Shown here: piece after piece, positions 43,596 to 60,291 of the stretch
Numbering within the stretch: the stretch's first letter is position 1
Layout of the letters: each line of letters starts with the position of its first letter
NCBI GenBank assembly: GCA_963815095.1
Contig: CAWFFH010000003.1
Span: forward strand, 224,001-288,000
Direction: 5' to 3'
Source: Candidatus Bathyarchaeota archaeon
GTDB taxonomy: Archaea > Thermoproteota > Bathyarchaeia > Bathyarchaeales > Bathycorpusculaceae
Length of the DNA stretch: 64,000 nt
Notes under the pieces: generated by a model
Seen by the model: the letters and a program-made list of their open reading frames with translations, nothing else
Database searches by the model: none
What the model was told of the DNA's origin: nothing
Position numbers and translations under genes: made by a program

Positions 43596-43830
43596 GAAAC
43601 CAAGTGTTTGAAATGTATGAATGTGGGTTAATGAAACTTCTTATTCAGTAATCTATAGTCTGCATTGTTAGAGAAACCTATGGTTACTTGCTTTAGTCTA
43701 AGTTTCTGGTTTTCTGCATGGACAATACATGCTATGGTTAGATTGTTTATGTTTTAGTCTTCCATCTTCAACCATTACAAGATGCCCACAGTTTTTGCAT
43801 CTAAGTTTGCTTTCTTGGTTTCCCATAGAT

Positions 43831-44415
43831 TTAGCTCCCTACCAGATTCTTTCTCCTTGAAAATACTACTGCACCCAATGCTATTACCACTAAACATGAT
43901 ACTGTTAGTGTTGTTGGAAACTCTGGAAGAGTAGGAATTGGAGTTGGAGCTATAGTTGGTGAAGAAGTAGGGCTGGGCAATGTTTGAATTTGAACTATGT
44001 TGGAGAAAGCTCCACCCAAATAATCTCCTGCGAGGATATAGAAATAATATTTTGTGGATGAAGATAAATTAGTTACAATGGTCGTGGTTTGTTGGCTGTC
44101 TGATGTCGTCCAAATGTCTTCGTAATCAGAACGGGCGAATGGGTAATGAGAATCCAAAGTTTTGTTTGACATACGCAAAATATAGTTACCAAAATAGGGA
44201 TGTTTAGGAAAGGGCACAAAACCCGCTGGTGGCTGATCACTTGTCCAAGACAACGTAACTGTTGTATCCGTAACTTCTGTAACATTAAGTGTTAAAGCGG
44301 GATTATGATTAGGTGTTGGTTCAGGAAGTGCTTTAACATTTTGTGGCAAGGCCACCATTGAAGCGATGAATAATAGAAGAAACATTAAAGCCAAACTCTT
44401 GCTAATGTAGCCCAT
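43831..44415 (-). CDS. Fibronectin type III surface protein with PEF-CTERM-like anchor
   Basis: Signal peptide, VTDTTVTLSW, TNLS.STKY.F.I.A, LPEFP-TM-RRK. Confidence 0.8.
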   Translation of the reverse strand: MGYISKSLALMFLLLFIASMVALPQNVKALPEPTPNHNPALTLNVTEVTDTTVTLSWTSDQPPAGFVPFPKHPYFGNYILRMSNKTLDSHYPFARSDYEDIWTTSDSQQTTTIVTNLSSSTKYYFYILAGDYLGGAFSNIVQIQTLPSPTSSPTIAPTPIPTLPEFPTTLTVSCLVVIALGAVVFSRRKNLVGS

Positions 44416-44464
44416 ACTTACATCTGGAACTGATTTTCATTATAAGGCTTCTCGTAAAAGACTC

Positions 44465-44824
44465 TTAACTGAGGTTAGTCAAATTTCTATTCAAATTCAA
44501 GGTAGATTTAAGGCGTATTATTATTTTCGTAATGACCGGTTCCTCCACAAGAGCTATTAAAATTAAGCTAACAAAAAAAACAACAGTCGAACCAATAACT
44601 AACAGAATATAGGACAATTGTGTTCCATAAAATCCCAGGACTATATGGGAGAAAATCATAAAACTATTATGAGGTATGTTAATTCTTAAGTCAGCCTGTC
44701 CATAAAATAACTCTAAAAAATAGCTATCATCATGAGCATAATCATTAACTAAAAAATACGCCATTGGAACTATTGAAACTAGTGCAACAGAACACCGAAG
44801 AGCTAATTTGAATATTTTCTTCAT
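44465..44824 (-). CDS. Hypothetical membrane protein
   Basis: Hydrophobic 119-aa ORF. Confidence 0.5.
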   Translation of the reverse strand: MKKIFKLALRCSVALVSIVPMAYFLVNDYAHDDSYFLELFYGQADLRINIPHNSFMIFSHIVLGFYGTQLSYILLVIGSTVVFFVSLILIALVEEPVITKIIIRLKSTLNLNRNLTNLS

Positions 44825-44930
44825 CCTTAGCCCTTAATAATATACTAACAGTAGATTGAAAAAGATTATCTTACGCTAAAACATCAGTTCTTAGTGTACT
44901 TGCTAGAATTAAAGAAAAAATTAAGCATAT

Positions 44931-45122
44931 TTAGAGCATATTTGCGGCTGTTCCATAAATGAATGCAATCATCAAAATTATTCCCGCAATAACGCTTAGC
45001 TTAAACAGAATAGAGTAAATTTTTTCTGTTTTTCTTAACTTCCATAAGACAGCTAACCATGCAATTACAAAAACCAATACAAAAAGGATTGAGATTGGAA
45101 AAGGAATCAGTTCAAATGCCAT
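44931..45122 (-). CDS. Small two-TM protein
   Basis: 63 aa with two hydrophobic helices. Confidence 0.55.
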   Translation of the reverse strand: MAFELIPFPISILFVLVFVIAWLAVLWKLRKTEKIYSILFKLSVIAGIILMIAFIYGTAANML

Positions 45123-45168
45123 AAATTAGGTATTTACCTTTTATCTATTTAAGTTAAATTAGATTTAG

Positions 45169-45246
45169 TGGTGGGGCTCCCCGGATTTGAACCGGAGTCT
45201 ATAGAGCCCAAGTCTACAAGCCTAGACCAAGCTAGCCGAGAGCCCC
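45169..45246 (-). tRNA. tRNA-Pro(UGG), CCA encoded
   Basis: GGGGCTC/GAGCCCC, GTAGA-CT TGG GC-TCTAT, TCCGG-TTCAAAT-CCGGG, ACCA end. Confidence 0.95.
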
Positions 45247-45399
45247 ACTGTGGTGCAGAGAACATAATTTCAGCTGAACCATAAAAACCTTAGCCACCCG
45301 TGCTTAAGATTTAGGGTTTAGGGGTTACAAATTTGTAGGGATTTTTCTTGGAAATTAATTCAGCGTATCATATTTAGATCTGCGAAATAGCGGTTAAGT

Positions 45400-47184
45400 T
45401 TAAACTCCTGCCCAGAACAGAGTCTTCTTACGCATAAACGCTACGAATTCCTTGAGAAGTTCCTGCTCTGCACTAGTCAAGTCATCTAGGTGTGTTGTTA
45501 ACAGTTTTTTCGCGTCCGCTTCAGGCACCTTCACATACAAAACATCTTTCTCAAACACATGTCGTCCTGCAATTGGCTTATCCATTGAAATCGCCACCTG
45601 CATTCCGACCTTAGCTTCGCCGATTGGTTTGCCTTGGTCTTGAATCTGATCCACTTCACCTAAGTCTGAGCTGTCCTCTGCGCGCATAAGCGAAACTTTG
45701 GGTTTTATTCTGCCACCTAAAACTTCTACGCCAAGAACTACGGGTTTGGCGCGGCGGAAGATGCAGTTTGGCAGCACTGTGAGTTTGCCGGGTTTAACAA
45801 GTGCTTCAAAGTCTGCTTCGCTTTTGGCTTCGCGCTTATTTTTTGCCCATTCCATGTAGTTGTCGATTAGGTTATAGATGATGGGGTCTTTGAAGATTTT
45901 AACTCCGTTTGCTTCAGCTTCAATTTCAGCGTCGGGCAAAACTTTAACGCCGAACGCTAGGATTGCGCCTACTAAGGGTTGACGCGTCTTCACCACAGAG
46001 GCTTCGATGACGTCGCGTTTGCTGATGTCGCCAATGTCGGCGATGCGGACTTGAACGTTGTTGGCTTTTAAAATTTCAGCCATAGCTTCAAGGGAGCCTA
46101 AAGTGTCAGCTTTCACGATGACGCCGTCGATTTCTTTTGTTATCCTGATTCGACCAATTTCTTCAGTAATTAGGTTACAATACTTGTTAACGTCTTCACC
46201 TTCAGGAACAGCAAACAATGGTGCACCCGCCAAGGCGCCATCCAAATCGGGCGCAACAATTTTCACACCTGCACTTGCGTAAACACACTCGACGCTGGTG
46301 AATTTGTCACGTGGGTCACGCATCTCATCTAACGGCTTTGGAACCAAAATCGTTCGTACGCGAGCCGAAATTGGCCCGTTTTTTCCGCCGACAACTATCA
46401 AATCATCCTTATGGAGGGTACCGTCATAAACAATCGCGTTTAGCGTTAATCCCAACCCGGGTTCCTCTTTAACTTCTAAAATGGAACCTTTGGCGGCGCC
46501 ATCTGTGGTCTGCAGTCGCTTCTTTAGGAACTGCTGAGTTAAGCCCACAAGAACCATGACTAATTCGGATAAGCCTTCGCCGGTTTTGGCGCTGGTCGGT
46601 ACAAGGGCAATGTTGATGGTGAAGTCGCGGATGTGATCGAATCGGTCGGTTTTGAAACCCAACCGGCTAAAATCGCCCATGACAGCGTATAGGCGGTTGT
46701 CTAATGCTTCGCGGACAAAGCTTGACTGTTCTGCGTATGATTTCAAGAAAGGTGTGCCTTCTTGGGGTTTCCATCCGGGAATTCGGTCAATTTTGTTAAC
46801 TGCAACAATGAATGGAGTTTTACGTGCTTTAAGAATCTCAATGCACTCAAAGGTTTGTGCTTCAAAACCCCGCAAGGCATCAACGACTAGAATAGCTATG
46901 TCGGCAACGCTTCCGCCTCTGCGTCGAAGATTCGTAAACGCTTCATGCCCAGGAGTATCTACAATTAGCAACCCTGGAATTTCGATGCCTGTTTTGAAGG
47001 TGCCCATGTAAGGTCCAATGAGTTGTTTTAAGGTTTCCACAGGGAAAAAGCTGGCGCCTATGTGCTGAGTCATGCCCCCAGCTTCACGTAACTGAACATT
47101 GGTTTTTCGCAATTCATCAAGTAATGAGGTTTTGCCTGCATCTACGTGTCCTAGAACACAAACTATTGGTTGACGTGTGGGCAT
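45400..47184 (-). CDS. infB: Translation initiation factor aIF5B (IF-2)
   Basis: RQPIV.VLGHVDAGKT, TQHIGA, DTPGHEAF, NKID, KADTLGSLEA. Confidence 0.97.
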   Translation of the reverse strand: MPTRQPIVCVLGHVDAGKTSLLDELRKTNVQLREAGGMTQHIGASFFPVETLKQLIGPYMGTFKTGIEIPGLLIVDTPGHEAFTNLRRRGGSVADIAILVVDALRGFEAQTFECIEILKARKTPFIVAVNKIDRIPGWKPQEGTPFLKSYAEQSSFVREALDNRLYAVMGDFSRLGFKTDRFDHIRDFTINIALVPTSAKTGEGLSELVMVLVGLTQQFLKKRLQTTDGAAKGSILEVKEEPGLGLTLNAIVYDGTLHKDDLIVVGGKNGPISARVRTILVPKPLDEMRDPRDKFTSVECVYASAGVKIVAPDLDGALAGAPLFAVPEGEDVNKYCNLITEEIGRIRITKEIDGVIVKADTLGSLEAMAEILKANNVQVRIADIGDISKRDVIEASVVKTRQPLVGAILAFGVKVLPDAEIEAEANGVKIFKDPIIYNLIDNYMEWAKNKREAKSEADFEALVKPGKLTVLPNCIFRRAKPVVLGVEVLGGRIKPKVSLMRAEDSSDLGEVDQIQDQGKPIGEAKVGMQVAISMDKPIAGRHVFEKDVLYVKVPEADAKKLLTTHLDDLTSAEQELLKEFVAFMRKKTLFWAGV

Positions 47185-47395
47185 CTTGTTTTTTCTCCTT
47201 CAATAATTTTGATGATTGGTGAATTATTATAACTGTTAATTGATAAATAATCATTTAACAAGGTATTTGTTTAAGGTTTGGTTTAATAAAAGTCGTTTAG
47301 ATGGGGCTTTAATTGAAACATAAATCCTTTAAAAAACCAATGCACTAAAATGAGAATAAAACCTGTTCACTTTTCTTAATGGGGCTTCATCCTCT

Positions 47396-48835
47396 TCATT
47401 TGTGTTTTTTACGGTAAAAAAGTATCCCAGCAATTACTAAGACAATAAAAGTTATAGAAGCAGCAGCAATAGCAACAACGGGAAAAGACTCTGGTTCTGG
47501 TTTAGCTACAGTGAAACTGGTAGTTTGCGATGAACCTATGTTTCCGAATGTGTCTTGGGCGTAAACTGTTATGTTATGTAAACCGTTTGAAATGTCAGTT
47601 AGGCTTGTGTTGCCAGAAAAGGTTACGTTTTGTTGTCCATCAAGACTATAGCTTGTCCAGTTAACTGCTTTATTACTATTGAAAACTAAAGGTACACTTG
47701 ATTCGTTGTAGTTTTGGTTTATTGGTGATGTGACGTTGATTTTTGGTGGAGTATTTTCTGTTGGCGGTACATAAGATGGGTCAGGAGTGCCATACCCAAA
47801 GGGAGTATACATTTCAACTGCAGTAGACCTAACATAGGTTGTGTCAAACCAAGTCGAACGTTCTGAAATTGTTCCACCAATAGAATACAACCTATCATCT
47901 AACACAGCAACGGCACCAACTGCACTCCCATTTAAAATCGCCATATTGCTCCAAGTGTCCAGCTTAGGGTCATACACTGCACCTTGAGAACCGACAAAAT
48001 AAATTCTTTTAGGAGCTAAAACTCCAGTAGTGGCTGCCCCAACTGGGTAAGTTCCTAAGGAAACGTACAGTTGTTTGCCTTGACTCCACGTATTGTTTTC
48101 AGTTTCATATACCATCATAACAGTGATTCGACCTGTTGGTCCTGAATAGCCACCTGCAGAACTCATAACGTAAATTTTGTTATCAACTGCAACTGCAGCG
48201 TAATAGGGAAACACAGAATATGAAACACCCCAAAAAGACAGCTCCGAGGGCATAGGTGACTTAGATGACCAAACATCAGATATAGGGTCATAAACCCAGT
48301 TGGAAGTTCCGCTGAAAACGTAGATTTTGCCGTTTACCACATTAGCAGTAGGTGAACCAGAAGCTGCTGGCATTGGTGTTTTGGTTTCCCAAGTGTCTGT
48401 TAAAGTATTATACACTTCATTTACGTTTGTGACGTTGGAGTCATAGCCAATTTGACCATTTGCTATTCCACCTATGCAGTAAATCTTGTCCCGAAAAACT
48501 GCAGTAGCAAAATTACATCTTGGATTTGGCATTGGTGATTTAGTAACCCAAGAATTAGTGTTTGGGTTATATTCTTCATTTGTACCTACAACGCCACCTG
48601 TGTCTTTTGAGCCTGTAGAAGATTGGACGGTGAGGTCGGTACCTCCTATAGCGTAGATTTTGCCATTCACTGATGCAACACCAAGAAAATCTCTTGCTTG
48701 ATGCATTGGTGCCTTCTCCACCCAAGTATTCTCAGAGGCAGTGACTCCAGAAACAGGCATAGCTAAAATTATGGATGACGCTGTTAGGAAGACCAGAACA
48801 AGTGCTAAAGCTAAAGGTTTACTCATTACCACCAC
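47396..48835 (-). CDS. Kelch-repeat surface protein with Ig-like domain and PESF-TM anchor
   Basis: Repeated W..K.PMP..R....GKIYAIGG...E.Y.P; YSLDG domain; KPEPESFP-TM-RKKHK. Confidence 0.88.
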   Translation of the reverse strand: MVVMSKPLALALVLVFLTASSIILAMPVSGVTASENTWVEKAPMHQARDFLGVASVNGKIYAIGGTDLTVQSSTGSKDTGGVVGTNEEYNPNTNSWVTKSPMPNPRCNFATAVFRDKIYCIGGIANGQIGYDSNVTNVNEVYNTLTDTWETKTPMPAASGSPTANVVNGKIYVFSGTSNWVYDPISDVWSSKSPMPSELSFWGVSYSVFPYYAAVAVDNKIYVMSSAGGYSGPTGRITVMMVYETENNTWSQGKQLYVSLGTYPVGAATTGVLAPKRIYFVGSQGAVYDPKLDTWSNMAILNGSAVGAVAVLDDRLYSIGGTISERSTWFDTTYVRSTAVEMYTPFGYGTPDPSYVPPTENTPPKINVTSPINQNYNESSVPLVFNSNKAVNWTSYSLDGQQNVTFSGNTSLTDISNGLHNITVYAQDTFGNIGSSQTTSFTVAKPEPESFPVVAIAAASITFIVLVIAGILFYRKKHK

Positions 48836-48868
48836 TTCATTGTTGAAAGGGTTTGTAATAAAAGACTT

Positions 48869-48923
48869 CTTGTCAAGGAATCTGGACTAAACCGGTTTTT
48901 CTAAGTCAAGAATTATGAACTAA
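48869..48923. repeat. Tandem 8-6-8 palindromic sites
   Basis: CTTGTCAA-ggaatc-TGGACTAA and TAAGTCAA-gaatta-TGAACTAA. The block is near-identical to 54922..54976. Confidence 0.85.
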
Positions 48924-49023
48924 CTGTTCTTGCGTTAGTCTTTTGCTTCCTTTAGTCTTTTGAGAAAGTTCCTCAGGTTGACAAGACTAAGAGATGCAAA
49001 AACTATACACCTTAACTGTTGTT

Positions 49024-49404
49024 TTACTCCATTTCCTTTATGGAAATTGCGACTCCACATTTTTTCAGAAGATCCGTGTCTGCGGTGACTAACTTGAGGT
49101 TTCCTTTTTCCGCTAAATAAGCGTACGAGGCATCGTAGAAAGTTAGATGTCGATTTACTGCTAACTCTAAAACGTTGGCCAACGAGTCAATCTCCAGTTT
49201 TTTTAAAGGCGCAAGGGCTTCTGAAAAAATGGCAGCTATCCTTGCTGGGTCTTTGAGTTTCTTTTTCTGGTTCTCCTTCCACAGGACGTTTCCTATCTCG
49301 TATTCTGTTAGGGTGCTTACTGCGCATTCTTCAGGGTTGTATGGGTTGCCAGAAATTAACAGGGGATAGAGTGCTGAGGTGTCTATGAGGTATTTACATT
49401 TCAT
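49024..49404 (-). CDS. vapC: VapC PIN-domain toxin
   Basis: LIDTSA, LT.YEIGN, LTFYDASY..LA, LVTAD..L. Confidence 0.9.
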   Translation of the reverse strand: MKCKYLIDTSALYPLLISGNPYNPEECAVSTLTEYEIGNVLWKENQKKKLKDPARIAAIFSEALAPLKKLEIDSLANVLELAVNRHLTFYDASYAYLAEKGNLKLVTADTDLLKKCGVAISIKEME

Positions 49405-49624
49405 GTCTTGTCGCTTTGACGTCAGATACCCACTCCTCAGCTTTAACGTCCATTAGGCTATCGAGTTCTTTAGCTATTTTCTTTGCTTTAGCTTTCTTAT
49501 CAGCCACCAAGTCTTCGAGAAGCTGCTCTATCTCCACTTTTAAGTCGACTCCTAGCTTCTCAGCTTCATCTTTGAGGCTTTTTTTGACCCTTACAGATAG
49601 AACCTCAGTCAACGTATACACCAA
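49394..49624 (-). CDS. vapB: VapB-like RHH antitoxin
   Basis: VLSVRV...LK.EAEKLGVD; overlaps vapC. Confidence 0.82.
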   Translation of the reverse strand: MVYTLTEVLSVRVKKSLKDEAEKLGVDLKVEIEQLLEDLVADKKAKAKKIAKELDSLMDVKAEEWVSDVKATRHEM

Positions 49625-49640
49625 CTAAATAATGTATACA
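49613..49640. promoter_or_regulatory. Putative vapBC autorepression operator (two GTATAC palindromes)
   Basis: CGTATACA (49613-49620) and TGTATACA (49633-49640) between the TATA-like element and the vapB start. Confidence 0.5.
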
Positions 49641-49745
49641 AACAACCTATAAAACTTTACGAAAAAACCCCAAAACAGCTCATACTAGTTGTTTTCTTAA
49701 ATTGACTTCCATTTTTGCACTAATGCCATATTGTTTTGACTTTAC

Positions 49746-50612
49746 TTAAAAACTTTTTAAAATAACAATTGAATGGTTAAACTGTTTTCTTTTTGTGTTT
49801 TTCAGGTAGACCAACAAACCAGCAACCACCAAAGCAACTACTGCAACAGAAACAGCGGCAACGGCGATTGTTGAAAGAGGCATCGGTTGCTGAACGGTGA
49901 AGGTTTTTTCAGCCATCGCAGATTGATTAAACACGTCTTTCGCATAAGCCGTCAAAGTATGCGTGCCTTCAGATAAGCCAAATAAAGTTACATTGTACAC
50001 GTACGAATCCAAAAACGATGCTGATTCGTTTTGAGGCAAAGTCACGTTTGCTCCTCTGTCAAGGCTGTAGGAAACGGCTGAATCAAACTCGTTAGTGGTT
50101 ATGTTAAACATTGCTTGGTTTGCTTTGTATACGTCTAAACCTGAGATTGACATTTGGGGTTGAATCTCTCGATGAATAAAGAAATCGACTGATAATGAAG
50201 GATAAAGGTGATAAAAAACAGTAATCCATGTGCTTGGGCAATAATACAGGTCTAAATCAACTCTTATTGTATGTTTACCTTGGGTTAAATTCGTCAAAAT
50301 CAAATTTAAATTTGCATCAAGTACTTCATTTCGTCTACTGCTGATGTTTTGCTGGTTTTGATTACGGAGGTCTCCATCTAAATAGACATTATAAGATATT
50401 GTCTCGACCCAAACATAGTCGGCTTTCTTCGTGACGGAAAAGTGCAGATTTATACTAGTTCCGTTAATTATTTCTCCTTCATCTGGGTTTTCAATAGCTA
50501 CGCTAAAACCTTCTGCTTGAGCATTTGCGCAGTCAATAAACGACACGGGAAAAACTAAAAGCAACACGACTAAGATTGCGGCGTGTTTTTTCAGTTTGAA
50601 CCCTGACCTCAT
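49746..50612 (-). CDS. Surface protein with Ig-like repeats and C-terminal TM anchor
   Basis: Signal peptide, YSLD...N.T, GLSEG.H.LT.YA.D, AVSVAVVALVVAGLLVY+KR. Confidence 0.8.
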   Translation of the reverse strand: MRSGFKLKKHAAILVVLLLVFPVSFIDCANAQAEGFSVAIENPDEGEIINGTSINLHFSVTKKADYVWVETISYNVYLDGDLRNQNQQNISSRRNEVLDANLNLILTNLTQGKHTIRVDLDLYYCPSTWITVFYHLYPSLSVDFFIHREIQPQMSISGLDVYKANQAMFNITTNEFDSAVSYSLDRGANVTLPQNESASFLDSYVYNVTLFGLSEGTHTLTAYAKDVFNQSAMAEKTFTVQQPMPLSTIAVAAVSVAVVALVVAGLLVYLKNTKRKQFNHSIVILKSF

Positions 50613-50651
50613 TGGCGCACCTTAGAATCTTTAACTGTTGATAAGATATTT

Positions 50652-50690
50652 AGTTCTATTCAAGGAACAGAATGTTCCAATAATGGAACA
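50652..50690. repeat. Tandem GTTC-N8-GAAC palindromes, 21-bp period
   Basis: AGTTCT-attcaa-GGAACA gaa TGTTCC-aataat-GGAACA upstream of the 50612 gene. Confidence 0.65.
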
Positions 50691-50726
50691 GACACAAGTT
50701 TCTTGATGTACTGACTCTCGAATAAA

Positions 50727-52523
50727 CTATTTTTGCCTGCGTTTTTTGTCGTAAACCAACAAACCAGCAGTCGCCAATAACACAACTACGAGAGCCATAA
50801 CGATAACAATCAATGTTGGAAAACTTTCTGACTCCGTTTCCTTACTCTGTATAGTCCCTGAAAGTTCCTGAGGGACCTCAGTTGAAGGCAACTCAATAGC
50901 ACTGAACTCATTTGGAGATAATATTGGATAGTAGTCTATGTTACGGTCAGTTATTTTGTATGCTCCTTGCGCGGTTGAGTTGTTGTCGCTCCAGAAATTG
51001 CCAACCGAACCATTGTCCCAAGCATTATAGCTGGCGGCATACTGAGGAAACACAGTGGAGTTTTCGTTGTAGCCTTCATCGCCCTTCCAAACAAATCTTC
51101 CTTTAATCGAGACTTGGACGCTGCCGTTGTTGTTGTCTATGAAATTGTTGAGGTAGAAGCTGCTATTTTTTATGTCATTGTATATTATTATGGCAAAATT
51201 GGTGTTTTGAGCGAGGTTGTTCTCTTTTGTGGTGCACCAAGAAAGGTCACCCATTCCCATCTCTATACCTGCCTTATTTTTTGATATGTCGTTTCCAGTT
51301 ATCGTAACGTTAATGCCATTTCGGAAGCATAATCCGCCCTCTCTGTTTTGCGTAATATTGTTTTTGCAAACAATTGAGTTTGACATGTCCCAGAAGTAAA
51401 CCCCATGTTGTCCATTACCCTCAAGGTAATTCCCAGTAATGTTGCATCCTGTTCCTGCTTGTATTCCACAACCACTATTTGCGATTATTAGGTTATTTGA
51501 AATAATAGCGTTTTTCGAACCGCTGATGCTGTAACCGGTGCTGTCTATTCCACCTCCGTTAGCCCTGATTAAGTTGTTTGCGATGGTCGTGTTTTCTGAA
51601 TCATATTGTTCGATCGCGTCGTTACTGTTATTGGTTAATTTATTGCCGATTATCAAGTTGTTGGAGGAGTTGCGAAGGGATACGCCGATTTCGTTATCTG
51701 TTAATGTGTTTCCGTAAACTTTGCAATTGCTCGAGTTAAAAAGGGAAATTGCCGTATATGCATATTTAATGTCCAAATTAGGAACTATTATGTTACTGCA
51801 GCCTTCAAGATGAACCATACTTGCGTCGGCTGGCACAGTTATGTTTTGTTGGTTAATTAGGTAGTAGATTGGTTTACCGTTGATTGTATTCGACACATCT
51901 ACGTCACTTTTTTCGTAGGTCAAGTCTTCAAAATTAATTGTGTTGTTTTTCATTTGGTTATTTCTGAAGAGATTTTCTGAACCGAAAAAAGTTATGCCTA
52001 TCTCGTTATTCATTACTTGGTTTCCTATGATTCTGCATTCTATGCCCCCGACGATTGATATTCCATTGGTGGTGTTTGAAATTTTACAATTATTTATAGT
52101 GCAGTTGGTCGATCGGTTGGGGTTTGGGTCATACCACAAAAAAGCTTCTGGATCCCTATAATGACCGAGCAGAATACCAGTCTCAAAATTTTCTACATTA
52201 ATGTTTTTTATGGTAACGTTGTTTTTGTCGTAAAGAGCAATACCTGTGGAATTTCCTTTTCCTTTTAATGTGAAGCCTGCTCCGTCAAGCACAATGCCAT
52301 TACGCTCGATGGTAATGTCTCCTTCTATGTTTCCCTTGAGCGTGTAGGTGGTTCCGTCTCGGGTGATGTTTGGAGCGTTGCATTCTCCGTCTGAGTAGAT
52401 TTTGTAATTCTGAAGTGTGTTTGCAAATGTTGGAGAAGCATTAATTTGGGATAGGCTGCTTTGAAACCAAATCGGTGAAGTAAACAATGCCAACGCAAAG
52501 ATTGCCAGTAGTAACTTCTTCAC
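50727..52523 (-). CDS. NosD/CASH right-handed beta-helix surface protein
   Basis: Asn-rich GI.L..SSNN.I.GN repeats, NNF..N, WDNG.VGNFWSD, D.YP, SESFP-TM-KKRR. Confidence 0.88.
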   Translation of the reverse strand: MKKLLLAIFALALFTSPIWFQSSLSQINASPTFANTLQNYKIYSDGECNAPNITRDGTTYTLKGNIEGDITIERNGIVLDGAGFTLKGKGNSTGIALYDKNNVTIKNINVENFETGILLGHYRDPEAFLWYDPNPNRSTNCTINNCKISNTTNGISIVGGIECRIIGNQVMNNEIGITFFGSENLFRNNQMKNNTINFEDLTYEKSDVDVSNTINGKPIYYLINQQNITVPADASMVHLEGCSNIIVPNLDIKYAYTAISLFNSSNCKVYGNTLTDNEIGVSLRNSSNNLIIGNKLTNNSNDAIEQYDSENTTIANNLIRANGGGIDSTGYSISGSKNAIISNNLIIANSGCGIQAGTGCNITGNYLEGNGQHGVYFWDMSNSIVCKNNITQNREGGLCFRNGINVTITGNDISKNKAGIEMGMGDLSWCTTKENNLAQNTNFAIIIYNDIKNSSFYLNNFIDNNNGSVQVSIKGRFVWKGDEGYNENSTVFPQYAASYNAWDNGSVGNFWSDNNSTAQGAYKITDRNIDYYPILSPNEFSAIELPSTEVPQELSGTIQSKETESESFPTLIVIVMALVVVLLATAGLLVYDKKRRQK

Positions 52524-52570
52524 CGCTTTGTCCTCAAGTAAACCTCACCAAGTAAATCCTTTAAAGTGTT

Positions 52571-52627
52571 TTCGTCAAGATTTCTTGACTAACCCAGAAA
52601 ATTACTTAGTCAAACTTTCTTGACTAA
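52571..52627. repeat. Tandem 8-6-8 palindromic sites, one with perfect 10-bp arms
   Basis: TTCGTCAA-gatttc-TTGACTAA and ACTTAGTCAA-actttc-TTGACTAAGT. The second overlaps the stop of the 52610 gene. Confidence 0.85.
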
Positions 52628-53413
52628 GTTGAATTTATGTTTTTTGTGGCAAACTAACAAACCAGCAGCCACCAAGGCAACTGCTACAGTAAAAACAGCG
52701 ACAACAGGCACAACAGTAAAAGACTCTGGTTTAGCAATAGCTACGGTGAAGCTGATTGTTTCAGACGCGCCCATATTCCCATAGGTATCGTTAGCATAGA
52801 CAGTAACGTTGTGCAACCCATTTGGCAAACCATTGAGGGTGAAATTGCCGCTGATGGTGCTGTTTTTTTGGCCGTCGAGGCTGTAGCCTGTCCAATTAAC
52901 TTTATCGACTGTGAACATCAAGGGTACGTTTGTTTCTGTGTATGTCTGATTTATGGGTGATAGCGCCTGGATCTTGGGCGTGGTTGTTTCCACTATGAAG
53001 TGGACTGTTTCACTATCCCAGCAACTGGGTCCGGTTACCCAGTGGGCTTCCACATAGACAGATAATGTGTGTGGTCCGTCGGAGAGCTCTGGGAGCATCA
53101 CAGATCCAATCACTCGGTTCTTGCTCCATATCATCGAAGGAGAGACCACAAGTGACACATTGATGTTGGGTGTTCCGTCCAGACTGTAGGTAGCTGATAA
53201 ATGAATTGGTGAGAAGAGCTTGGTTGAAAAACTGATGTTAAGCGTGACTATTCTTGAACTGTATGTGGTGTTGACTGGAAACAATATGTAAGGTCCTGTT
53301 GCAAGGCGGGTTCCACTGTCATCAAATATGTCCGCTTTGATGGGGAGAGTCAAGGCTGAAGCTAACAAGAAAAGCGCCACGACGAATGCTAAGGCTAATG
53401 TTATTCCCTTCAT
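52610..53413 (-). CDS. Surface protein with two Ig-like repeats and PESF-TM anchor
   Basis: ATG at 53413, signal peptide, YSLDG twice, KPESF-TM-KKHK. Confidence 0.82.
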   Translation of the reverse strand: MKGITLALAFVVALFLLASALTLPIKADIFDDSGTRLATGPYILFPVNTTYSSRIVTLNISFSTKLFSPIHLSATYSLDGTPNINVSLVVSPSMIWSKNRVIGSVMLPELSDGPHTLSVYVEAHWVTGPSCWDSETVHFIVETTTPKIQALSPINQTYTETNVPLMFTVDKVNWTGYSLDGQKNSTISGNFTLNGLPNGLHNVTVYANDTYGNMGASETISFTVAIAKPESFTVVPVVAVFTVAVALVAAGLLVCHKKHKFNLVKKV

Positions 53414-53447
53414 AGTTTCCAGATGAAGTGAGCTCTTAGATGCATTT

Positions 53448-53507
53448 AGCTCTCCCCAGAGAACAGCCTGTTCCGCTAAGAGAACGCTTCGTTCCTCTAA
53501 AAGAGTA
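53448..53507. repeat. Three tandem GTTC-N8-GAAC-like palindromes, 21-bp period
   Basis: AGCTCT-N6-AGAACA, TGTTCC-N6-AGAACG, CGTTCC-N6-AGAGTA between divergent starts 53413 and 53547. Confidence 0.6.
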
Positions 53508-53546
53508 ATATACATCTTACTGCAGCGATATTAATTGTGAAAAGAC

Positions 53547-53655
53547 ATGAATAAAATAGCTCTTGTGCTAACAATGGTAGTAATTATCTGTTTGATTTCT
53601 GCTGCCATAGTTGCTTACAATCAGTTATTTTGTCAGTCTCAGTACTTTCGAGGGG
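53547..53655 (+). pseudogene. 5' stub (signal peptide) of a truncated secreted-protein gene
   Basis: MNKIALVLTMVVIICLISAAIVAYNQLF then runs directly into the antisense of the neighbour's TM anchor. Confidence 0.5.
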
Positions 53656-54877
53656 ATAAACCAACAAACCAACAACCACCAATGCAACCACTGCCACAGA
53701 AACAGCTAATACAGTTACAGTTGGAAAAACTTTTACGTTAAAGTGCAGTGTGTTTGGAGCACTGAAAATTCCATATTGATCCTTTGCGTAAATAGTCACA
53801 TTATGTTCTCCACTGGGCAAGTTATCCAAAGCAAGTGATACATTTGAGTCTGTTAGTTACATTGGCTTGATTATCTAAAGAGTAAAGAATTTGTGAAACA
53901 GGTTTATTCACAGAAAAATCCAGCACAACCTTAGCGGTATCATAGGTTTTGTTTTGGATCGTTGTAAAAGAAATTGTTGGAAGGATACTATCTATCGTAA
54001 AATTAACTGATGCAGAGCTGCCAATGTCATAAACATAAGAGGTGTTTTCAGATACAAAATTTCCCGCTCCAGCAGCAAAAACGGTTATTGTATGATTTCC
54101 CTCAGACATTCCAGTTAAAGAATCATTGAAGAAATTAGTTGAAGAGGTATTGTTTAAGTGGTATTCGGAGTTATTATTTTTTTCCCAAGCGACTTGGTAC
54201 CAGACGTCAGTAAGGACCGATGCATCTTTTGATGTGGTGGCTTTGAATGATAAAGAAACATTGTTGGCGGTAAAGATTGTGCTGTTTGGAGAGTATATTA
54301 TAATTTTGGGCGGTATAGCGCCTTCTGGTGCAGATACAGACCCGCCCCAAGCATATTGGTCATCGTTTACGTAGAATATTATCCTTGACGAATTACCTAT
54401 AACCGTATTGTGTGTGTAATCGTCAGTCCAATAATCGTATTGTCCTTCCGCGCTAACAGACATTGTATGTAATCCTTGAGAAAGCCCATTCAGCGGTAAT
54501 ATGTAGTTTAAAGTTGCTGGAATTGGATGTTCGGATAATCCGGTGTAGTTGTCGTTTGCAGGAATTGTAACAGGTGGTTGTCCATCTATGCTGTATCGAA
54601 TATAGTTTACTTTACCTTGGCAATCATAGTTGTAGAGAATTGCTCCTGAAGTAAACCATGATGCGGGTTTGGTTACTGTTAACTTTAGCTCAAAGTCTGG
54701 ACCGTAAACGTGGTTTTTTAGTGGATTTAAGACTGTGATTGAGAGTGGAGTAAAATCTGGGCCTGAATTCATAACTGGCCCCATTTGAGCAAAAGCACTG
54801 TCCAAAATTGATAACTGCGCTATCATCAATAACAGGAGCACTGAAAAGAACGTTATCACTACAGCTTTTCTATTCAT
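53584..54877 (-). pseudogene. Ig-like-repeat surface protein, frameshifted near 53858 and 3'-truncated
   Basis: 53822..54877 (YSIDG/YSLD repeats) continues in the 53584..53829 frame (LPSGEHNVTIYAKD...VFP-TM). The basic tail after the TM is lost. Confidence 0.75.
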
Positions 54878-54921
54878 ACATACCTAACTTTACTTTTGAA
54901 TTGCCTGACCTTAAAAGACTT

Positions 54922-54976
54922 CTTGTCAAGGAACCTGAACTAAACCCGTTTTTCTAAGTCAAGAATTCTGGACTAA
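54922..54976. repeat. Tandem 8-6-8 palindromic sites
   Basis: CTTGTCAA-ggaacc-TGAACTAA and TAAGTCAA-gaattc-TGGACTAA, adjacent to the TATA of the 54877 gene. Confidence 0.85.
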
Positions 54977-55085
54977 CAGTCATTTGGAAAATACTCATTT
55001 ACCAAAGGCCTTCATTTTCATCATAACTGAATATTAAAAAACTTATAACGGGCTTTTTACCTAATCTCAATTGGAAGTTATTGAT

Positions 55086-55253
55086 ATGGATGGTCCTCAA
55101 TTGCCAGTTACTCCCAGGCTGTGTGATAATGTTGCTTCTCCATGTTCAAGATGTGACAATGCAGGAGAAGAGGGACCAAAAGACCCTATACTTTGCGAAA
55201 AATGTGAAAAATTCAAAACTTGGGAAGAAAAAGAGTGCTCTCCAATAGATTAG
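55086..55253 (+). CDS. Small Cys-rich protein
   Basis: C, CSRC, CEKC, C; TTATAA upstream. Confidence 0.5.
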   Translation: MDGPQLPVTPRLCDNVASPCSRCDNAGEEGPKDPILCEKCEKFKTWEEKECSPID

Positions 55254-55294
55254 TTCTATTGAGACACAACAAGCATTCCAATTTTTGTTTAGGG

Positions 55295-55741
55295 TTATTC
55301 GGGATTAGCTATGCTTGGGTGGATTTCAAACGAGTAAGTTATAGGCACAGTTCCTTTCAACATTCCGCCCACCGAACAATACGTCTCCATAGATAAGTCA
55401 ATGGCTCTTTTGACTGCCTCTGAACTCACATTTTCGCCTCTAATTATATATTTCAAATGAATTTTTGTAAAGATATTTGGGGGAGGATCATCCCTTCTTT
55501 CCGCTATGGCTTCAACTGAGTAACCTGTTACTTTTTGTCGTTTCTTTTTAAGAACTATTAAAACGTCATAACTGCTGCATGCCGCTAAGCTTGCAAGCAC
55601 ATTTTCCATGGGGGTTAAAGCAGTTTCTTCACCGCCAAATTCTTGTGATGCATCAAACCTAACAGAAAGTCCTTTTTCGTTTTTTGCGATCAAACGGTAA
55701 TTGCGTTCCCAATCAAGAAATATTTTCTTTGTAGAAGTCAT
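55295..55741 (-). CDS. OsmC/Ohr family protein (YhfA-like)
   Basis: D.....GG.....PME..L.SLAAC, F..I.L.Y, YCSV. Confidence 0.9.
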   Translation of the reverse strand: MTSTKKIFLDWERNYRLIAKNEKGLSVRFDASQEFGGEETALTPMENVLASLAACSSYDVLIVLKKKRQKVTGYSVEAIAERRDDPPPNIFTKIHLKYIIRGENVSSEAVKRAIDLSMETYCSVGGMLKGTVPITYSFEIHPSIANPE

Positions 55742-55892
55742 AGTTTCTGTTAGGTGAAATTTGACTAAAAACCTTTGCCTTTCAGGCACTGGGTCTTTTG
55801 AATAGGTAGAATTTTCAGTAATAGAGAGTGCTTTCTTTGTACATTTAGAAAGTGTAAAAGAAGATTGAAGTAGCAGCTCGAATTTATGAGAT

Positions 55893-56333
55893 TTAGATTT
55901 TGTTTCGTTTTTGGTCTATTACTTTTTTCGCTAAAGCCACTGCATCTTCTCTTGTTTTGCCATATAATGCACCGATTTTGTCGGCATCCTCTTTGTCTAC
56001 AGCAGCCCCGCCTATCATAACTACAACTTTGTTCTTTAGCCCTTCAGCTTCTAAGGCAGAAATCAGTTTTAGAAGATTCTCTTTAGCACCAGAAATGCTA
56101 ACAGTAACAACAATTATGTCAGCGTTTGTCTCTTTGATCTTTGAAACAAATTCTGCAACAGAAACACCTTTTCCGACATCTACTGTCTTAAACTGAGCCG
56201 TTTTTAGTGATTTTCTAACCATCTCTTTAGCAGTATCTATCATGTCGGGATGGAGAGTACCTATAACAATTGTTCCGATGGGATTGGCTGGTTCGGCTGG
56301 CTCTTTTTCTCTCATAGCTTTTAACCAAGACAT
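55893..56333 (-). CDS. Standalone cobalamin-binding-domain protein lacking the axial His
   Basis: GTIVIGT...D..D..K..V...L....F..VD.G..V, ADI, VMIGGA, ADKIGA. DxHxxG reads DMIDTA. Confidence 0.8.
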   Translation of the reverse strand: MSWLKAMREKEPAEPANPIGTIVIGTLHPDMIDTAKEMVRKSLKTAQFKTVDVGKGVSVAEFVSKIKETNADIIVVTVSISGAKENLLKLISALEAEGLKNKVVVMIGGAAVDKEDADKIGALYGKTREDAVALAKKVIDQKRNKI

Positions 56334-56559
56334 AAAAAAATCAAATCCACCATATTCTCTTGCTACTATTCTTAAGATATTGTGTTAAAACTATATAATT
56401 AATCATTTGCAAACGTACAAAGAGGCTATTCAAATAGTTACATAGCTACTGAAATGACACCTATGAAATACGCATTTTGTTTGTGTTGCGCTCTGTTTGC
56501 GCGGTTTTGCTTCAAGCAACGTTTTTATTTTCGCAGCAGTTTTTTAGTTTGGTGATTGT

Positions 56560-56877: not shown

Positions 56878-56883
56878 GGTTGC

Positions 56884-57248: not shown

Positions 57249-58691
57249 TCAAATAGACTCAATTAATTTCTGAGATTTTATTTTCTTAACCTCAGTAAGG
57301 ATTCTATTCAAAATTTCCTCATCCCCTAAAACTCCACTTGGAGCGTTGACAACTATCTTAAGCGGAAGAGGTACACGATCCATACGATAAGCAGTTCCGT
57401 CCATTTCAATACCCGCAACCGCAGCTGAAAAAACCACATCAGCCATTAATGACGAGGCATTCAGGTGAGGATCAATAACGATAAGTGGATTCTTAACAAG
57501 ATGCTCTACAGCAACCTTTGGAAAACCAGCCACAGGATCTGAAGCAACAGCTAAAAAAGCATCAGACTCATGACGCGTAAGGATCTCAACTACAGAGGTT
57601 TCTCCCGGATTATATCTTGGGTAACCAAGAGAAAAATCAACACCAAAAGGAAAACCAGTTTGCCAAGTTAAAACCATATTTGCGCCAGTGACATTAAAAT
57701 GTCCTCTCATGGGCATCATTGCAAATTTTGTGCGAGAATTAAGATCCCGAACCAATTCAATAGCAGCCTCTATATTTCGAGATTTGCCTTCACTCTGAGC
57801 TAACCCCATGCCAAAGAAAAGCACCCCAAAGTTGCAGTTTACCAAAACCTCAGCAACTTCACTGAGATATTTAATCGGAATCCCAGCCACGGTATCAACA
57901 TCAATTTCTTGATCATTAACCTGCATTCGCAAGGCCTGAATAAGCTCAAAGTCTTTGTTGGGTTCTATTTGAAGAAAGAAATTTGCCATTGCAGCAGTCG
58001 AGGTTTTGCGAACGTCAACAACTATAAGCTTGCGAGCTTCCTTACTCAAAGTTTGAGGCAAAGAATTAGGATCAGAGTTATCCGTTTGAAACTGAGTTGG
58101 AGACTTCGCTAAGTCTATAGCTTGATTAACTTCTACATTGTTTTGATCAGAATGTACTTTCCGTTGGCTCTCTTCAAATCTTCCTTCAGAAAAGATAGTG
58201 TATCTTTGCATGTGTCTTGGGTGGGAACTCAACGGATCACAACCCCAATAGAGGATAAGATCAGCTCGGTGTCTAACCTCTCCTAAAGTGCAAGAAGGAA
58301 TACCTTCTTCTTGCATACCTAAAACTGATGGTCCATGACAAACAGTTGAAGTATTATCAAAAACACCGCCAACTAGCTCCGCCAATTCTATACCAATCCG
58401 CTGAGCCTCACAACTTGTACTACTCCAACCGTACAGTATGGGATAGTTCGCGTTAGCAAGAATTTCAGCAGACTTATGAATGGCTTCATCAAACGGAACT
58501 TCAACTAACACGCCGTTTTTCCTTATTAGGGGCTTTTGAATCCTGTGTGCATTGTTATAATTTAGGAATTTAGCGTTGCTAAGAACGCATCCATTTTTGT
58601 TTTTTATTATTTTTCCGTTTTCAACGGTTAATTCGATATCGTCGCACAAGCAACCGCAAAAGGGACAAGCTACAGAACTAATTATTTTCAG
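57249..58691 (-). CDS. fwdB: Formylmethanofuran dehydrogenase subunit B (Mo/W-bisPGD)
   Basis: CPFCGCLCDD (upstream of the track start), YGWSST.CEAQ, TVCHGPS, CTLGEVR.RAD, HPRH..RY, MRGHFNV.G, GTAYRMD.VP. Start probably CTG at 58691. Confidence 0.92.
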   Translation of the reverse strand: MKIISSVACPFCGCLCDDIELTVENGKIIKNKNGCVLSNAKFLNYNNAHRIQKPLIRKNGVLVEVPFDEAIHKSAEILANANYPILYGWSSTSCEAQRIGIELAELVGGVFDNTSTVCHGPSVLGMQEEGIPSCTLGEVRHRADLILYWGCDPLSSHPRHMQRYTIFSEGRFEESQRKVHSDQNNVEVNQAIDLAKSPTQFQTDNSDPNSLPQTLSKEARKLIVVDVRKTSTAAMANFFLQIEPNKDFELIQALRMQVNDQEIDVDTVAGIPIKYLSEVAEVLVNCNFGVLFFGMGLAQSEGKSRNIEAAIELVRDLNSRTKFAMMPMRGHFNVTGANMVLTWQTGFPFGVDFSLGYPRYNPGETSVVEILTRHESDAFLAVASDPVAGFPKVAVEHLVKNPLIVIDPHLNASSLMADVVFSAAVAGIEMDGTAYRMDRVPLPLKIVVNAPSGVLGDEEILNRILTEVKKIKSQKLIESI

Positions 58692-58822
58692 TTTAAGCGA
58701 CCACGCCTATTCAATTTACTGCACTCAATCCAATAGTAAATACGTTTGTTGAATAAATAACTAAGTACTACCACGGCAATTTCCAATATAATTTTTAATT
58801 AGTTTACAAAAACCTGCGATAA

Positions 58823-60202
58823 TTAGTCTAAACAAACATGTACTTTGGTTTTTCGACGCTTAAAAACCAATGCAACAAAGAGCAGTGAAAGAAGCAAAGG
58901 CACAACTACAAACCATGATAACTCCCTAACGGTGGGAGTTGGCGATGAGGTTGGCGTTTGTGATGGGAGTTCTGATGGAATTAGGATTATTTGAGGCTGA
59001 GGAGGAAGGTTTTGAGTCCATTGTGGCAAGTAAATTGGAACGTCGTCGATATTGACTTGATTTGTTAATGGAAAATTATCTTGTCCGAAGATAATGCTTG
59101 TATAGTTGATAGTCCCGTGCTCATATACTGTCTCGTTGAGCAAATAGGGAGTATCCCATATGCCATCCCCGTTCAAATCAATATCTTTGTATTCTTCCCA
59201 GAAATTGCCGCGTGTTCCGTTATCCCAATAATTCGTTTCAGGTCCATTTGGGAAGTATTGCCTGAAGTTAGGGTCGCTGTACTGGTCGTAAATGTAGTCA
59301 TGTCTCCAAGATGGGTTTCCCATGAAGTTGTTGAGAAAGAACTCATTTCTTGACGACATACCTAAACTAATGCTATGGGTTAGTGAGTCATTAATGGTGT
59401 TTGCTTGAACTATATTGTCTAAAGAGTACCAGAACCTAAATCCCATTTGGTAGCCTGAAATTCGGTTTTTATAAAAATAGTTGTTATTGCTCCAAGTCAT
59501 GTCTATGCCACTGTAGCCAAGTGAGCTGCTCAAAATGCTGTTAGCTAGAATTACAGTGTCTGTTGTATTAGCTAAGCCAATAGTCTGTTGGACATTATTG
59601 TTTTCTACAAGGTTAAATGATCCGTATAAATAGATGTTTTCTAACGTATTACCTCTGGCTTGGTTATGGTTTCCGTTGAGTTGAACCAGTCCACGCACTG
59701 AACTATCAATTATTTGGGTATACGAACCGTTAACTTGAAGCCCAGTTGAGTAGCCAGAAATTACATTGCAACCAACAACCTGCAGCTGATCGCCCCTTAC
59801 AGAAAGATCTCCGCCTGGGTCATGCATAATTATTGTTAAGTTTTGGAATTTGCATCCGTCAGCTAAGACGGTTATGCCATCTGAATAGTCATAAAGTCCA
59901 GTTGTGAAAATCCAAGTCACATTGAAGGCTGGAAATAAAGTAATTATAACGCCTTGTGTACTTTCCCCGATAATAGTTAACGTTTTATCAATTATTATTG
60001 TCTGGTTAATTGGTCCGTTGTAGTTACCATTTCTAAAATAAATTGTGTCACCGCTAGTTGAATTTCCTATAGCTGAGGTAATGGTTGAATAATCATCTGG
60101 AACAATAATTGTTTTAGTTTGGGCTTTGACCGTGATGGATTGGGGCAAAAATAATGGAGGAAGAAACAGCAGAATAAGTAGCAATACTAAACTTCTTTTC
60201 AT
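58823..60202 (-). CDS. NosD/CASH beta-helix surface protein
   Basis: IIVPDDY.TI..AI, Asn-rich repeats, WDNG.RGNFW..Y...D.NGDGIWDTPY, D.FPL, P/T linker, TM+KRRK. Confidence 0.87.
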   Translation of the reverse strand: MKRSLVLLLILLFLPPLFLPQSITVKAQTKTIIVPDDYSTITSAIGNSTSGDTIYFRNGNYNGPINQTIIIDKTLTIIGESTQGVIITLFPAFNVTWIFTTGLYDYSDGITVLADGCKFQNLTIIMHDPGGDLSVRGDQLQVVGCNVISGYSTGLQVNGSYTQIIDSSVRGLVQLNGNHNQARGNTLENIYLYGSFNLVENNNVQQTIGLANTTDTVILANSILSSSLGYSGIDMTWSNNNYFYKNRISGYQMGFRFWYSLDNIVQANTINDSLTHSISLGMSSRNEFFLNNFMGNPSWRHDYIYDQYSDPNFRQYFPNGPETNYWDNGTRGNFWEEYKDIDLNGDGIWDTPYLLNETVYEHGTINYTSIIFGQDNFPLTNQVNIDDVPIYLPQWTQNLPPQPQIILIPSELPSQTPTSSPTPTVRELSWFVVVPLLLSLLFVALVFKRRKTKVHVCLD

Positions 60203-60245
60203 TTTGACCTGATTCAAAAGTAAATGTGTTTTCCATAAAAGCTTT

Positions 60246-60291
60246 TTTGTATAGGTTTCTTGACTAAGCTAAATCAAAGGTTATTGACTGG
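60246..60291. repeat. Tandem 8-6-8 palindromic sites
   Basis: TTTGTATA-ggtttc-TTGACTAA and TAAATCAA-aggtta-TTGACTGG adjacent to the TATA of the 60202 gene. Confidence 0.7.

Follow-up and report, generated by a model that had tools for sequence, protein, structure and literature searches.

The DNA considered here is a 64,000-nucleotide stretch, hereafter the window, of contig CAWFFH010000003.1 (positions 224,001 to 288,000; C3:224001-288000 in our numbering) from a Candidatus Bathyarchaeota archaeon, whose genome (G000) comprises 2.69 Mb in 9 contigs. Within the window a palindrome of 22 bp, TTAGTCAAGAAAcCTTGACtAA, which we call the box, is found at five minus-strand promoters, and the genes behind these promoters encode secreted proteins (Table 1). 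The original prediction, made from the letters of this stretch, held that such sites are either the operators of a surface-protein regulon or dif-like sites at which gene cassettes recombine. The evidence presented below argues for the regulon and against the cassettes.

The protein encoded by 50727-52523 has a signal peptide and a C-terminal membrane anchor with a basic tail, and the gene that follows it, 49746-50612, is probably co-transcribed with it. The open reading frames (ORFs) 53584-53829 and 52610-53515, which come after 53822-54877 on the same strand, may likewise share its transcript. For the Kelch gene, the ATG at 48823, which stands behind GGTGG, is a more likely start than the GTG at 48835. 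Several of the target proteins carry VPEFSW or LPEFP before the last membrane span, as in the 43831-44415 protein, where LPEFP precedes the C-terminal anchor. These strings may be a sorting signal, a possibility that we offer as a lead only, and none of the 28 proteins scanned matched the PEF-CTERM models of NCBIfam at E <= 0.01.

Table 1. Box-associated features of the window (positions are those of the window; BRE, B recognition element; scores in bits refer to the box matrix unless stated otherwise).
Feature	Position	Strand	Remarks
Probable target: secreted fibronectin-III-like protein, 194 amino acids	43831..44415	-	Pfam fn3 3.9e-5, under cut-off
Degenerate proximal box, gene 43831-44415 promoter, then aagc CTTATAAT	44451..44472	-	15.7 bits
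Island of 9.2 kb with three of the five box promoters and a PIN toxin pair	47257..56465	.	missing from three related species
Secreted Kelch beta-propeller, Ig-like domain, C-terminal anchor	47396..48835	-	Pfam Kelch_1 2.1e-30
BRE CAAGAAGT + TATA CTTTTATT, gene 47396-48835	48857..48872	-	
Proximal box, gene 47396-48835 promoter	48869..48890	-	27.4 bits
Distal box, gene 47396-48835	48902..48923	-	19.1 bits; centre 33 bp from proximal
Secreted Ig-like protein without a box of its own	49746..50612	-	114 nt downstream of gene 50727-52523
Secreted right-handed beta-helix (NosD-like) protein, 598 amino acids	50727..52523	-	Pfam Beta_helix 2.9e-30, NosD 3.4e-25
BRE CGAAAACA + TATA CTTTAAAG, gene 50727-52523	52559..52574	-	BRE bases 1-4 are the last 4 of the proximal box
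Proximal box, gene 50727-52523 promoter (TTAGTCAAGAAATCTTGACGAA)	52571..52592	-	33.4 bits; 1 mismatch to consensus
Distal box, gene 50727-52523	52606..52627	-	30.7 bits; 0 mismatches; centre 35 bp from proximal
Secreted protein, 351 amino acids, no Pfam family	53822..54877	-	
BRE CAAGAAGT + TATA CTTTTAAG, gene 53822-54877	54910..54925	-	
Proximal box, gene 53822-54877 promoter	54922..54943	-	21.7 bits
Distal box, gene 53822-54877	54955..54976	-	27.2 bits; 2 mismatches; centre 33 bp from proximal
Secreted NosD-like beta-helix protein, C-terminal anchor	58823..60202	-	Pfam Beta_helix, NosD ~1e-5
BRE CAAAAAAG + TATA CTTTTATG, gene 58823-60202	60234..60249	-	11.7 bits on tRNA-derived matrix
Single proximal box, gene 58823-60202 promoter	60246..60267	-	29.0 bits; CTATACAAA in place of right arm
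Weak neighbour of the 60246 box	60270..60291		5.2 bits

The boxes stand out clearly from the composition of the window. The pattern TTAGTCAA-N6-TTGACTAA, allowing at most 3 mismatches, matched six times against 0.69 expected, and none of 100 shuffled sequences reached six. With a weight matrix trained on 47 sites taken from the whole genome, exactly eight sites in the window scored at least 12 bits. The conserved core is GTCAAG-N4-CTTGAC, in which GTCAAG and CTTGAC lie 10 bp apart, or about one helical turn. The tandem pairs that had been proposed at 48869/48902, 52571/52606 and 54922/54955 were all recovered, whereas the second copy proposed at 60270 is weak. The partner at 44475 of the 44451 site, said to have one good arm, is a half-site with -2.2 bits, and a supposed degenerate copy at 43640 was not borne out (-9.5 bits). 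The segment 52604-52629, which contains the distal box of gene 50727-52523, does read as perfect 10-bp arms around a 6-bp spacer (10-6-10). The stop codon of ORF 52610-53515 falls within this distal site, as had been noted; there is no site at the 3′ end of gene 58823-60202, for which the same overlap had been claimed, and a further claimed overlap involved ORF 44465-44824, which our codon-usage gene caller rejects as a gene.

Two of these promoters share more than the box. Blocks 48860-48925 and 54913-54978 are identical at 60 of 66 bases (91%), while their flanks agree at only 15-21 of 60, that is, at random, in keeping with the near-identity that had been reported for them. This 66-bp module consists of the TATA edge, the two boxes and an 11-nt linker (10 of 11 linker bases match), and it fronts the Kelch gene in one case and the unrelated gene for the 351-amino-acid protein in the other. 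Among the same-spacing pairs of the genome it is the sole clear case of a module shared by unrelated genes.

A survey of the entire genome demonstrates that the box is far more widespread than the window alone would suggest. Matrix matches of at least 20 bits numbered 80 on both strands, compared with 0, 0 and 0 in three Markov-shuffled genomes. At a threshold of 19 bits there were 62 unique sites, 53 of them outside the genes called by our own codon-usage procedure, by which 80% of the genome is coding. We defined as site genes the 33 genes with a site of at least 19 bits located 15-170 nt upstream of the start. By our own hydropathy rule, a signal-like N-terminus is present in 26 of the 33 site genes but in only 377 of 2797 others (Fisher p = 8e-17), and a signal combined with a C-terminal membrane span and a basic tail in 17 of 33 versus 59 of 2797. 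At least two (C8:17067 and C6:94237) of the seven site genes without a signal call are start-call or threshold errors, as judged from sequence. Pfam families among the site genes include Kelch, PQQ beta-propellers, NosD/right-handed beta-helix and Ig-like domains, and many of the proteins have no match. Small membrane proteins are also among the targets. Outside the secreted class the clear cases are the transcription factor P0001 and, weakly, citrate synthase; two others are the far sides of divergent palindromes.

The relation of the box to the core promoter is strikingly rigid. When the 33 promoters were aligned on the proximal box, numbered 1-22, the left arm and core proved to be near-invariant (T1, T5, A8, T15 and A18 in 33/33, G4 in 32/33, C19 in 31/33), and the proximal right arm is relaxed to TT[G/T]AC[A/G]A[A/G]. 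Past the box come A23-A24, two free positions, and then C27 (29/33), T28 (31/33) and A32 (32/33). In about 30 of the 33 promoters the TATA box thus stands in one register, starting at position 27-28, and at all five window promoters CTTTTA or CTTTAA begins 4-5 nt after the proximal box, much as had been noted (about 5 nt). None of the 33 aligned promoters has a strong site downstream of the TATA box. The distance from the end of the box to the called start codon is 18 to about 55 nt in most box genes; the leaders of the box genes are short.

An independent view of the core promoter was obtained from a matrix for the B recognition element (BRE) and TATA box that was trained solely on 39 tRNA upstream regions (consensus cRGnAAA-ry-TTWWAT). 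In this genome a Shine-Dalgarno sequence is present in the leaders of most genes, and for this reason a hunt for a general TATA signal aligned on start codons was fruitless; k-mer enrichment and the tRNA promoters served instead. In 27 of the 33 promoters the tRNA-derived matrix picks the offset at box position 19, with a median of 7.8 bits. For comparison, the training tRNA promoters themselves score 5.5-13.6 bits, and the best of 66 offsets upstream of other genes has a median of 4.4. Since the matrix independently selects the window that begins at position 19, the proximal box and the BRE have four bases in common, the final ones of the box and the first ones of the BRE. The change from T to a purine at box position 20 agrees with the demand of the BRE. 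Position 21 is A in 32 of 33 promoters, although the tRNA BRE has G there in 31 of 39.

A second, more perfectly palindromic box lies upstream in about two thirds of the modules. The sites of G000 form 62 clusters, of which 23 are doubles and one is a triple, with centre-to-centre spacings of 24 (14 times), 32-35 (10 times) and 45 bp (once). In G130, a single-contig genome of another family that was taken whole (genus g37, family f7), the corresponding values are 25 (once), 34-35 (4 times) and 43-46 bp (15 times). These spacing classes are about 10.5 bp apart, or one helical turn, so two bound units would hold the same angular relation in each class. The half-sites and the phasing of the tandem copies, as read from these sequences, fit a helix-turn-helix dimer with cooperative dimer-dimer contacts.

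The box is also conserved well beyond this genome. With at most one mismatch, TTAGTCAAGNNNNCTTGAC was found in all 18 other genomes of the genus examined (1-37 strand matches, versus 0-1 for a reversed-pattern control) and in none of the 12 genomes of other families in a first draw. In the order as a whole the motif is present in 71 of 201 genomes, and high counts are confined to the genera g1, g18, g19, g24 and part of g17 (family f1) and to g37 (family f7; up to 89). Genus g17 is divided, with 35 matches in G150 and 0 in G061, G104 and G116. The exact 19-mer TTAGTCAAGAAACCTTGAC occurs in at least 121 stretches of a species-genome collection. Among 80 listed titles of these, 67 name Bathyarchaeota, Bathyarchaeia or Bathyarchaeum, nine name Crenarchaeota, MCG, Thermoproteota or 'uncultured archaeon', and the remaining four are Sulfotelmatobacter (1), Muribaculaceae (1) and Methanocella (2). 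The two contigs titled Methanocella (L049, L075) belong to one metagenome-assembled genome and are possibly mis-binned.

In G130 there are 44 sites of at least 15 bits in 24 clusters, a signal-like N-terminus is present in 15 of 18 site genes versus 239 of 1601 others (p = 3e-10), and the composite of the box and AAnGCTTTT recurs at the same distance. For at least five reciprocal-best orthologue pairs of G000 and G130 a site accompanies both genes, and window gene 50727-52523 belongs to one of these pairs. Reciprocal-best pairs of the two genomes have a median identity of 54%, and hence the box and its register have outlasted much protein divergence. As a separate observation, in three species of the genus (G005, G016 and G017; L182, L196 and L181) the strict pattern yields just 2-3 strand matches; the box in front of their P0001 paralogue is TTAGTAAAG, with A rather than C at position 6, and the box may have drifted in these species.

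We propose that a dimeric, sequence-specific regulator binds the palindrome and controls a regulon of about 30 promoters for secreted surface proteins, mostly with a C-terminal anchor, and that this regulator is an activator. To this reading, activator role included, we assign a probability of roughly 0.58. That the box is in any event the regulatory protein-binding site of a regulon is very probable, in line with the first of the two original suggestions, and is supported by the genome-wide enrichment upstream of secreted and surface genes, the fixed BRE-TATA register and the presence of boxes at orthologous promoters across families. Given a regulatory site, activation is somewhat favoured over repression, because the strong sites are without exception upstream, in a single register, and it is the distal copies that form the best palindromes. 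Activators in archaea typically occupy DNA directly upstream of the BRE, and repressors bind over or downstream of the promoter (PMC5512572). Similarly, TrmBL1 activated two of three templates with upstream sites and repressed nine of nine with downstream sites (PMC4706686). If the box works in this way, a regulator dimer would occupy the distal box, which is the strong one, and bind the weaker proximal copy cooperatively. Its two helix-turn-helix units would read half-sites one helical turn apart on the same face of the DNA, and the bound regulator would contact and recruit transcription factor B (TFB) and TATA-binding protein (TBP) at the adjoining BRE/TATA, as Ptr2, TFB-RF1, EarA and GvpE do.

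Several considerations weigh against this proposal. Binding itself is something that we infer, and none of seven candidate regulators fits. The core promoters are not obviously weak by the tRNA-derived matrix, and these scores do not clearly reveal a poor BRE, which is the classic mark of recruitment, A21 being the one departure. Moreover, the register could partly reflect common descent of duplicated modules, as the 60/66 pair in the window illustrates. The gene calls are home-made, and the hydropathy rule behind the signal peptides and anchors is not a trained predictor. Finally, the 4-bp overlap between the box and the BRE could mean competition with TFB, and thus repression.

This last point leads to the most serious alternative, in which the regulon is the same but the box is a repressor operator: the proximal dimer would cover the edge of the BRE and block TFB, and the distal box would raise occupancy through cooperativity. 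Besides the overlap, the median BRE/TATA score is compatible with promoters that may need no help, and repressors that hinder TFB or TBP are common in archaea (PMC5512572). Nevertheless, the strong sites are all upstream of the TATA box, in one register. Most archaeal repressors act over the TATA box or start site, and no strong site is found there. The strongest palindromes are distal, 24-45 bp further out and unable to occlude, and their phased spacing suggests protein-protein geometry over mere occupancy. We therefore consider repression possible, though unlikely. A different arrangement would make the box an extended core-promoter element, recognised by a TFB or TBP paralogue that acts as an alternative general factor and gives surface genes a promoter class of their own. 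The joining of the proximal box to the BRE in one register would be expected, and there are three TFB genes in G000, G130 and G150 but two in the motif-less G061, G104, G031 and G024. However, the third TFB of G000 is a recent duplicate of the second (86% identity), and that of G130 is only 53-55% identical to either of these two; since the extra copies are not orthologous, we reject a link between them and the box. In addition, a palindrome of 22 bp, with perfect palindromes standing alone 24-45 bp upstream, suits a dimer and not a monomeric TFB, and this explanation appears very improbable. In G000 the related pair is C7:76143-77108, which is the third TFB gene, and C3:1386495-1387439, and the extra copies in different genomes arose separately.

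The second original suggestion, that the boxes are dif-like or attC-like sites at which a tyrosine recombinase shuffles cassettes of single surface-protein genes, deserves consideration. The 8-6-8 geometry with inverted arms is real, although homodimeric transcription-factor sites have it too. Surface-protein genes do lie in a variable island, the 66-bp module is 60/66 identical before two otherwise unrelated genes, and homology to the orthologue in G228 stops at 54976, the outer edge of the distal box. Tyrosine recombinases require matching overlap regions. Yet the centres of the boxes are heterogeneous, in that the 62 strong sites have 26 kinds of central 6-mer and no two of the seven strong sites in the window share one. 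For only three of the 33 site genes is there a site in the 300 bp after the stop codon, the sites keep one orientation and one distance relative to the TATA box and start codon, and just one module is clearly shared between unrelated genes. The genome holds four PF00589 matches, three over the Pfam cut-off and one below (C3:1217914, C6:10001, C3:564396 and C4:44641). None of these tyrosine-recombinase genes lies in the window, in agreement with what had been noted, or beside a box cluster. Xer/dif, pdif and attC sites resemble the box in having inverted arms and a 6-bp centre, but the boxes differ from them in being numerous per genome, in their heterogeneous centres and lack of an adjacent recombinase, and in standing only at 5′ ends, fused to a core promoter. 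The recombination reading fails on spacers, flanking, breakpoints and nearby recombinase, and we give it the least credence of all those considered here.

The breakpoint evidence comes from the 9.2-kb island, which was defined by comparing 40 genomes of the genus. It is gone from G231, G001 and G011, where the aIF5B gene adjoins a gene for a DUF4342 (zinc-ribbon) protein, and in G216 and G009 there is about 1.25-1.35 kb of other DNA between these two genes. The breakpoints, 47256/47257 and 56465/56466, lie in AT-rich spacer with no box, contrary to the expectation that they would fall within the spacers of the sites; this is the sole rearrangement mapped. DNA reads from four runs over 43000-61000 gave contigs of 166-457 bases at a depth of 2-5. 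Their loose ends at 52627 and 60235-60268, and an apparent join of 60267 to 52606, are explained by cross-matching from other box loci. A look-up of RNA runs returned none for 47300-55100. The island also carries genes for OsmC-like and B12-binding-domain proteins and, at 49024-49624 (-), a PIN-domain protein (Pfam 5e-9) with an overlapping 76-amino-acid ORF ahead of it that has no Pfam match, a layout like that of VapBC. The nearest DNA matches of its OsmC-like, B12-binding-domain and PIN genes are elsewhere in the genomes of relatives (77-79% for the PIN pair).

A bolder extension of the regulon is an order-wide 'surfaceome' switch under a regulator outside the families tested here, combined with a portable 66-bp promoter module. 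Surface-protein genes, new or swapped, would then enter the programme by way of the module, which they would acquire by conversion or by recombination at the boxes or next to them. If true, this would account for the 91%-identical module before unrelated genes and for the clustering of box genes in strain-variable islands, but we regard it as improbable.

The regulator was sought with a home-made iterative winged-helix profile applied to both proteomes, G000 and G130, together with reciprocal best hits, an approach that covers the winged-helix fold only. Seven candidates were examined by their distribution (P0001, P0003, P0004, P0005, L290, L291 and L292), and none separates box-rich from box-poor genomes. 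P0001 (L006; C3:649363-650349, 328 amino acids, Cys4 plus winged helices) has a promoter that itself contains tandem boxes. However, its family was not found in seven box-rich genomes (G004, G035, G130, G099, G087, G068 and G162), two of which are single-contig assemblies, and we conclude that P0001 is a member of the regulon instead of its regulator. In a tree of the family, eight of 34 homologues have a box upstream; these come from eight of 19 genomes and all sit on long branches. Family members are 310-330 amino acids long, with an N-terminal CxxC...C...C and two or three winged-helix domains (HTH_45, DUF7347, ArsR-like). A slow-evolving copy with no box is present in 17 of the 18 other genus genomes searched, and fast-evolving extra copies with a promoter box occur as paralogues in G005, G007, G010, G011, G012, G016 and G017.

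The closest candidate is P0005 (Lrp/AsnC), which lies 1.8 kb from a box cluster and has matches of at least 54% identity in 66 of 201 genomes. It is present in nearly all box-rich genomes but also in 19 genomes with 0-1 motif matches; no match was found in box-rich G100, G087 and G203, and there is no box within 1.5 kb of 12 of its orthologues. P0003 (HTH_20 plus S_layer_C) was rejected on account of 63-72% orthologues in four of five motif-less genomes, with fragments of 69% and 83% in the fifth, G031. L290 (HTH_45), L291 (ArsR), L292 and P0004 were likewise set aside, as all occur in motif-less members of g17; P0004, a membrane-anchored winged-helix protein, has a 59% orthologue in motif-less G031. 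P0004 (C4:7013-7474) and L292 (C1:63392-63838) are small proteins in which an N-terminal winged helix is followed by two or three membrane spans. Each of the five genomes searched has 2-8 members of their family, and P0004 is located between two box-bearing genes. For the FilR1-like regulator of the window (61855-62610) and for P0002 there was no reciprocal match in G130.

Elements of this kind are known in other archaea. Members of the Lrp family, to which Ptr2 of Methanocaldococcus jannaschii belongs, bind as dimers and higher oligomers. The sole Lrp-family candidate here, P0005, does not separate motif-rich from motif-poor genomes and has no boxes nearby. The Ptr2 sites are like the box in that multiple palindromes stand upstream of the BRE, from which Ptr2 activates by recruiting TBP (PMC5512572). 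The same source describes EarA at the fla (archaellum) promoter of Methanococcus maripaludis, where the sites stand directly upstream of BRE/TATA, as the boxes do, and expression of the genes for this cell-surface structure depends on the factor. EarA has four 6-bp sites and serves essentially one operon, whereas the box is a 22-bp palindrome at about 30 promoters with phased tandem copies (PMC5512572). The upstream activating sequence (UAS) of GvpE at haloarchaeal gas-vesicle promoters is a 20-nt element with two conserved 8-nt parts directly upstream of the BRE, a layout almost that of the proximal box. This element nevertheless serves two divergent promoters of one haloarchaeal gene cluster and not a regulon of dozens of promoters, and it is unrelated to the box in sequence and organism (PMC2241852).

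Two regulators of Pyrococcus furiosus complete the comparison. The TGM site of TrmBL1 is, like the box, a palindrome, is bound by a dimeric winged-helix regulator and occurs at some 30 promoter-near sites, and whether regulation is positive or negative can be predicted from its position relative to BRE/TATA. Some TGM sites are upstream and activate, others are downstream and repress, and the targets belong to sugar metabolism, whereas the box is upstream only, keeps one register and is associated with the cell surface (PMC4706686). TFB-RF1 (PF1088) binds beside the BRE and recruits TFB; it acts at weak-BRE promoters of one or a few operons (PMC5937170, PMC5512572), and the BREs here score reasonably well. 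Literature searches with the motif words, and with Bathyarchaeia combined with promoter, regulon, binding motif, TATA box or archaeosortase, returned nothing on the box, sequence matches being primers and aptamers, and no description of a transcription-factor site or regulon for Bathyarchaeia was found in the literature searched. The kind of element, a transcription-factor box fused to an archaeal core promoter, is known, and this particular box is new.

The box is notable for the rigidity of its register, for copies phased with the DNA helix and for an occurrence that spans two families of an uncultured class. Bathyarchaeia are abundant archaea of soils and sediments, uncultured and without a genetic system, and the box offers a predictor of regulated cell-surface genes in many species that needs sequence only, as well as a defined DNA bait for the regulator. 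It also provides a clean natural archaeal case of a regulator site fused to the BRE in one register with phased upstream copies. In addition, a false lead is removed, in that the dif-like look of the sites is no sign of a cassette-recombination system.

A few further observations concern the surroundings of the boxes. In both G000 (C3:645443-650490) and G130 (C1:1175363-1179390) a box promoter lies directly upstream of the ribosomal L3-L4-L23-L2 operon on the same strand; the first gene behind this box encodes the P0001 regulator in G000 and a 54-amino-acid membrane protein in G130. In the window, 41421-42659 (-) encodes a secreted protein of the metallo-beta-lactamase fold with a match to the ComEC/Rec2 C-terminal domain (NCBIfam 6.6e-39, under cut-off), a long Pro/Thr/Ser linker and IPEFP ahead of a C-terminal anchor, and there is no box upstream of it. 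A tRNA-Pro (TGG) gene occupies 45169-45246 (-), and the segment around it, about 45169-45295, has matches of 85-96% at unrelated places in many genomes of the genus.

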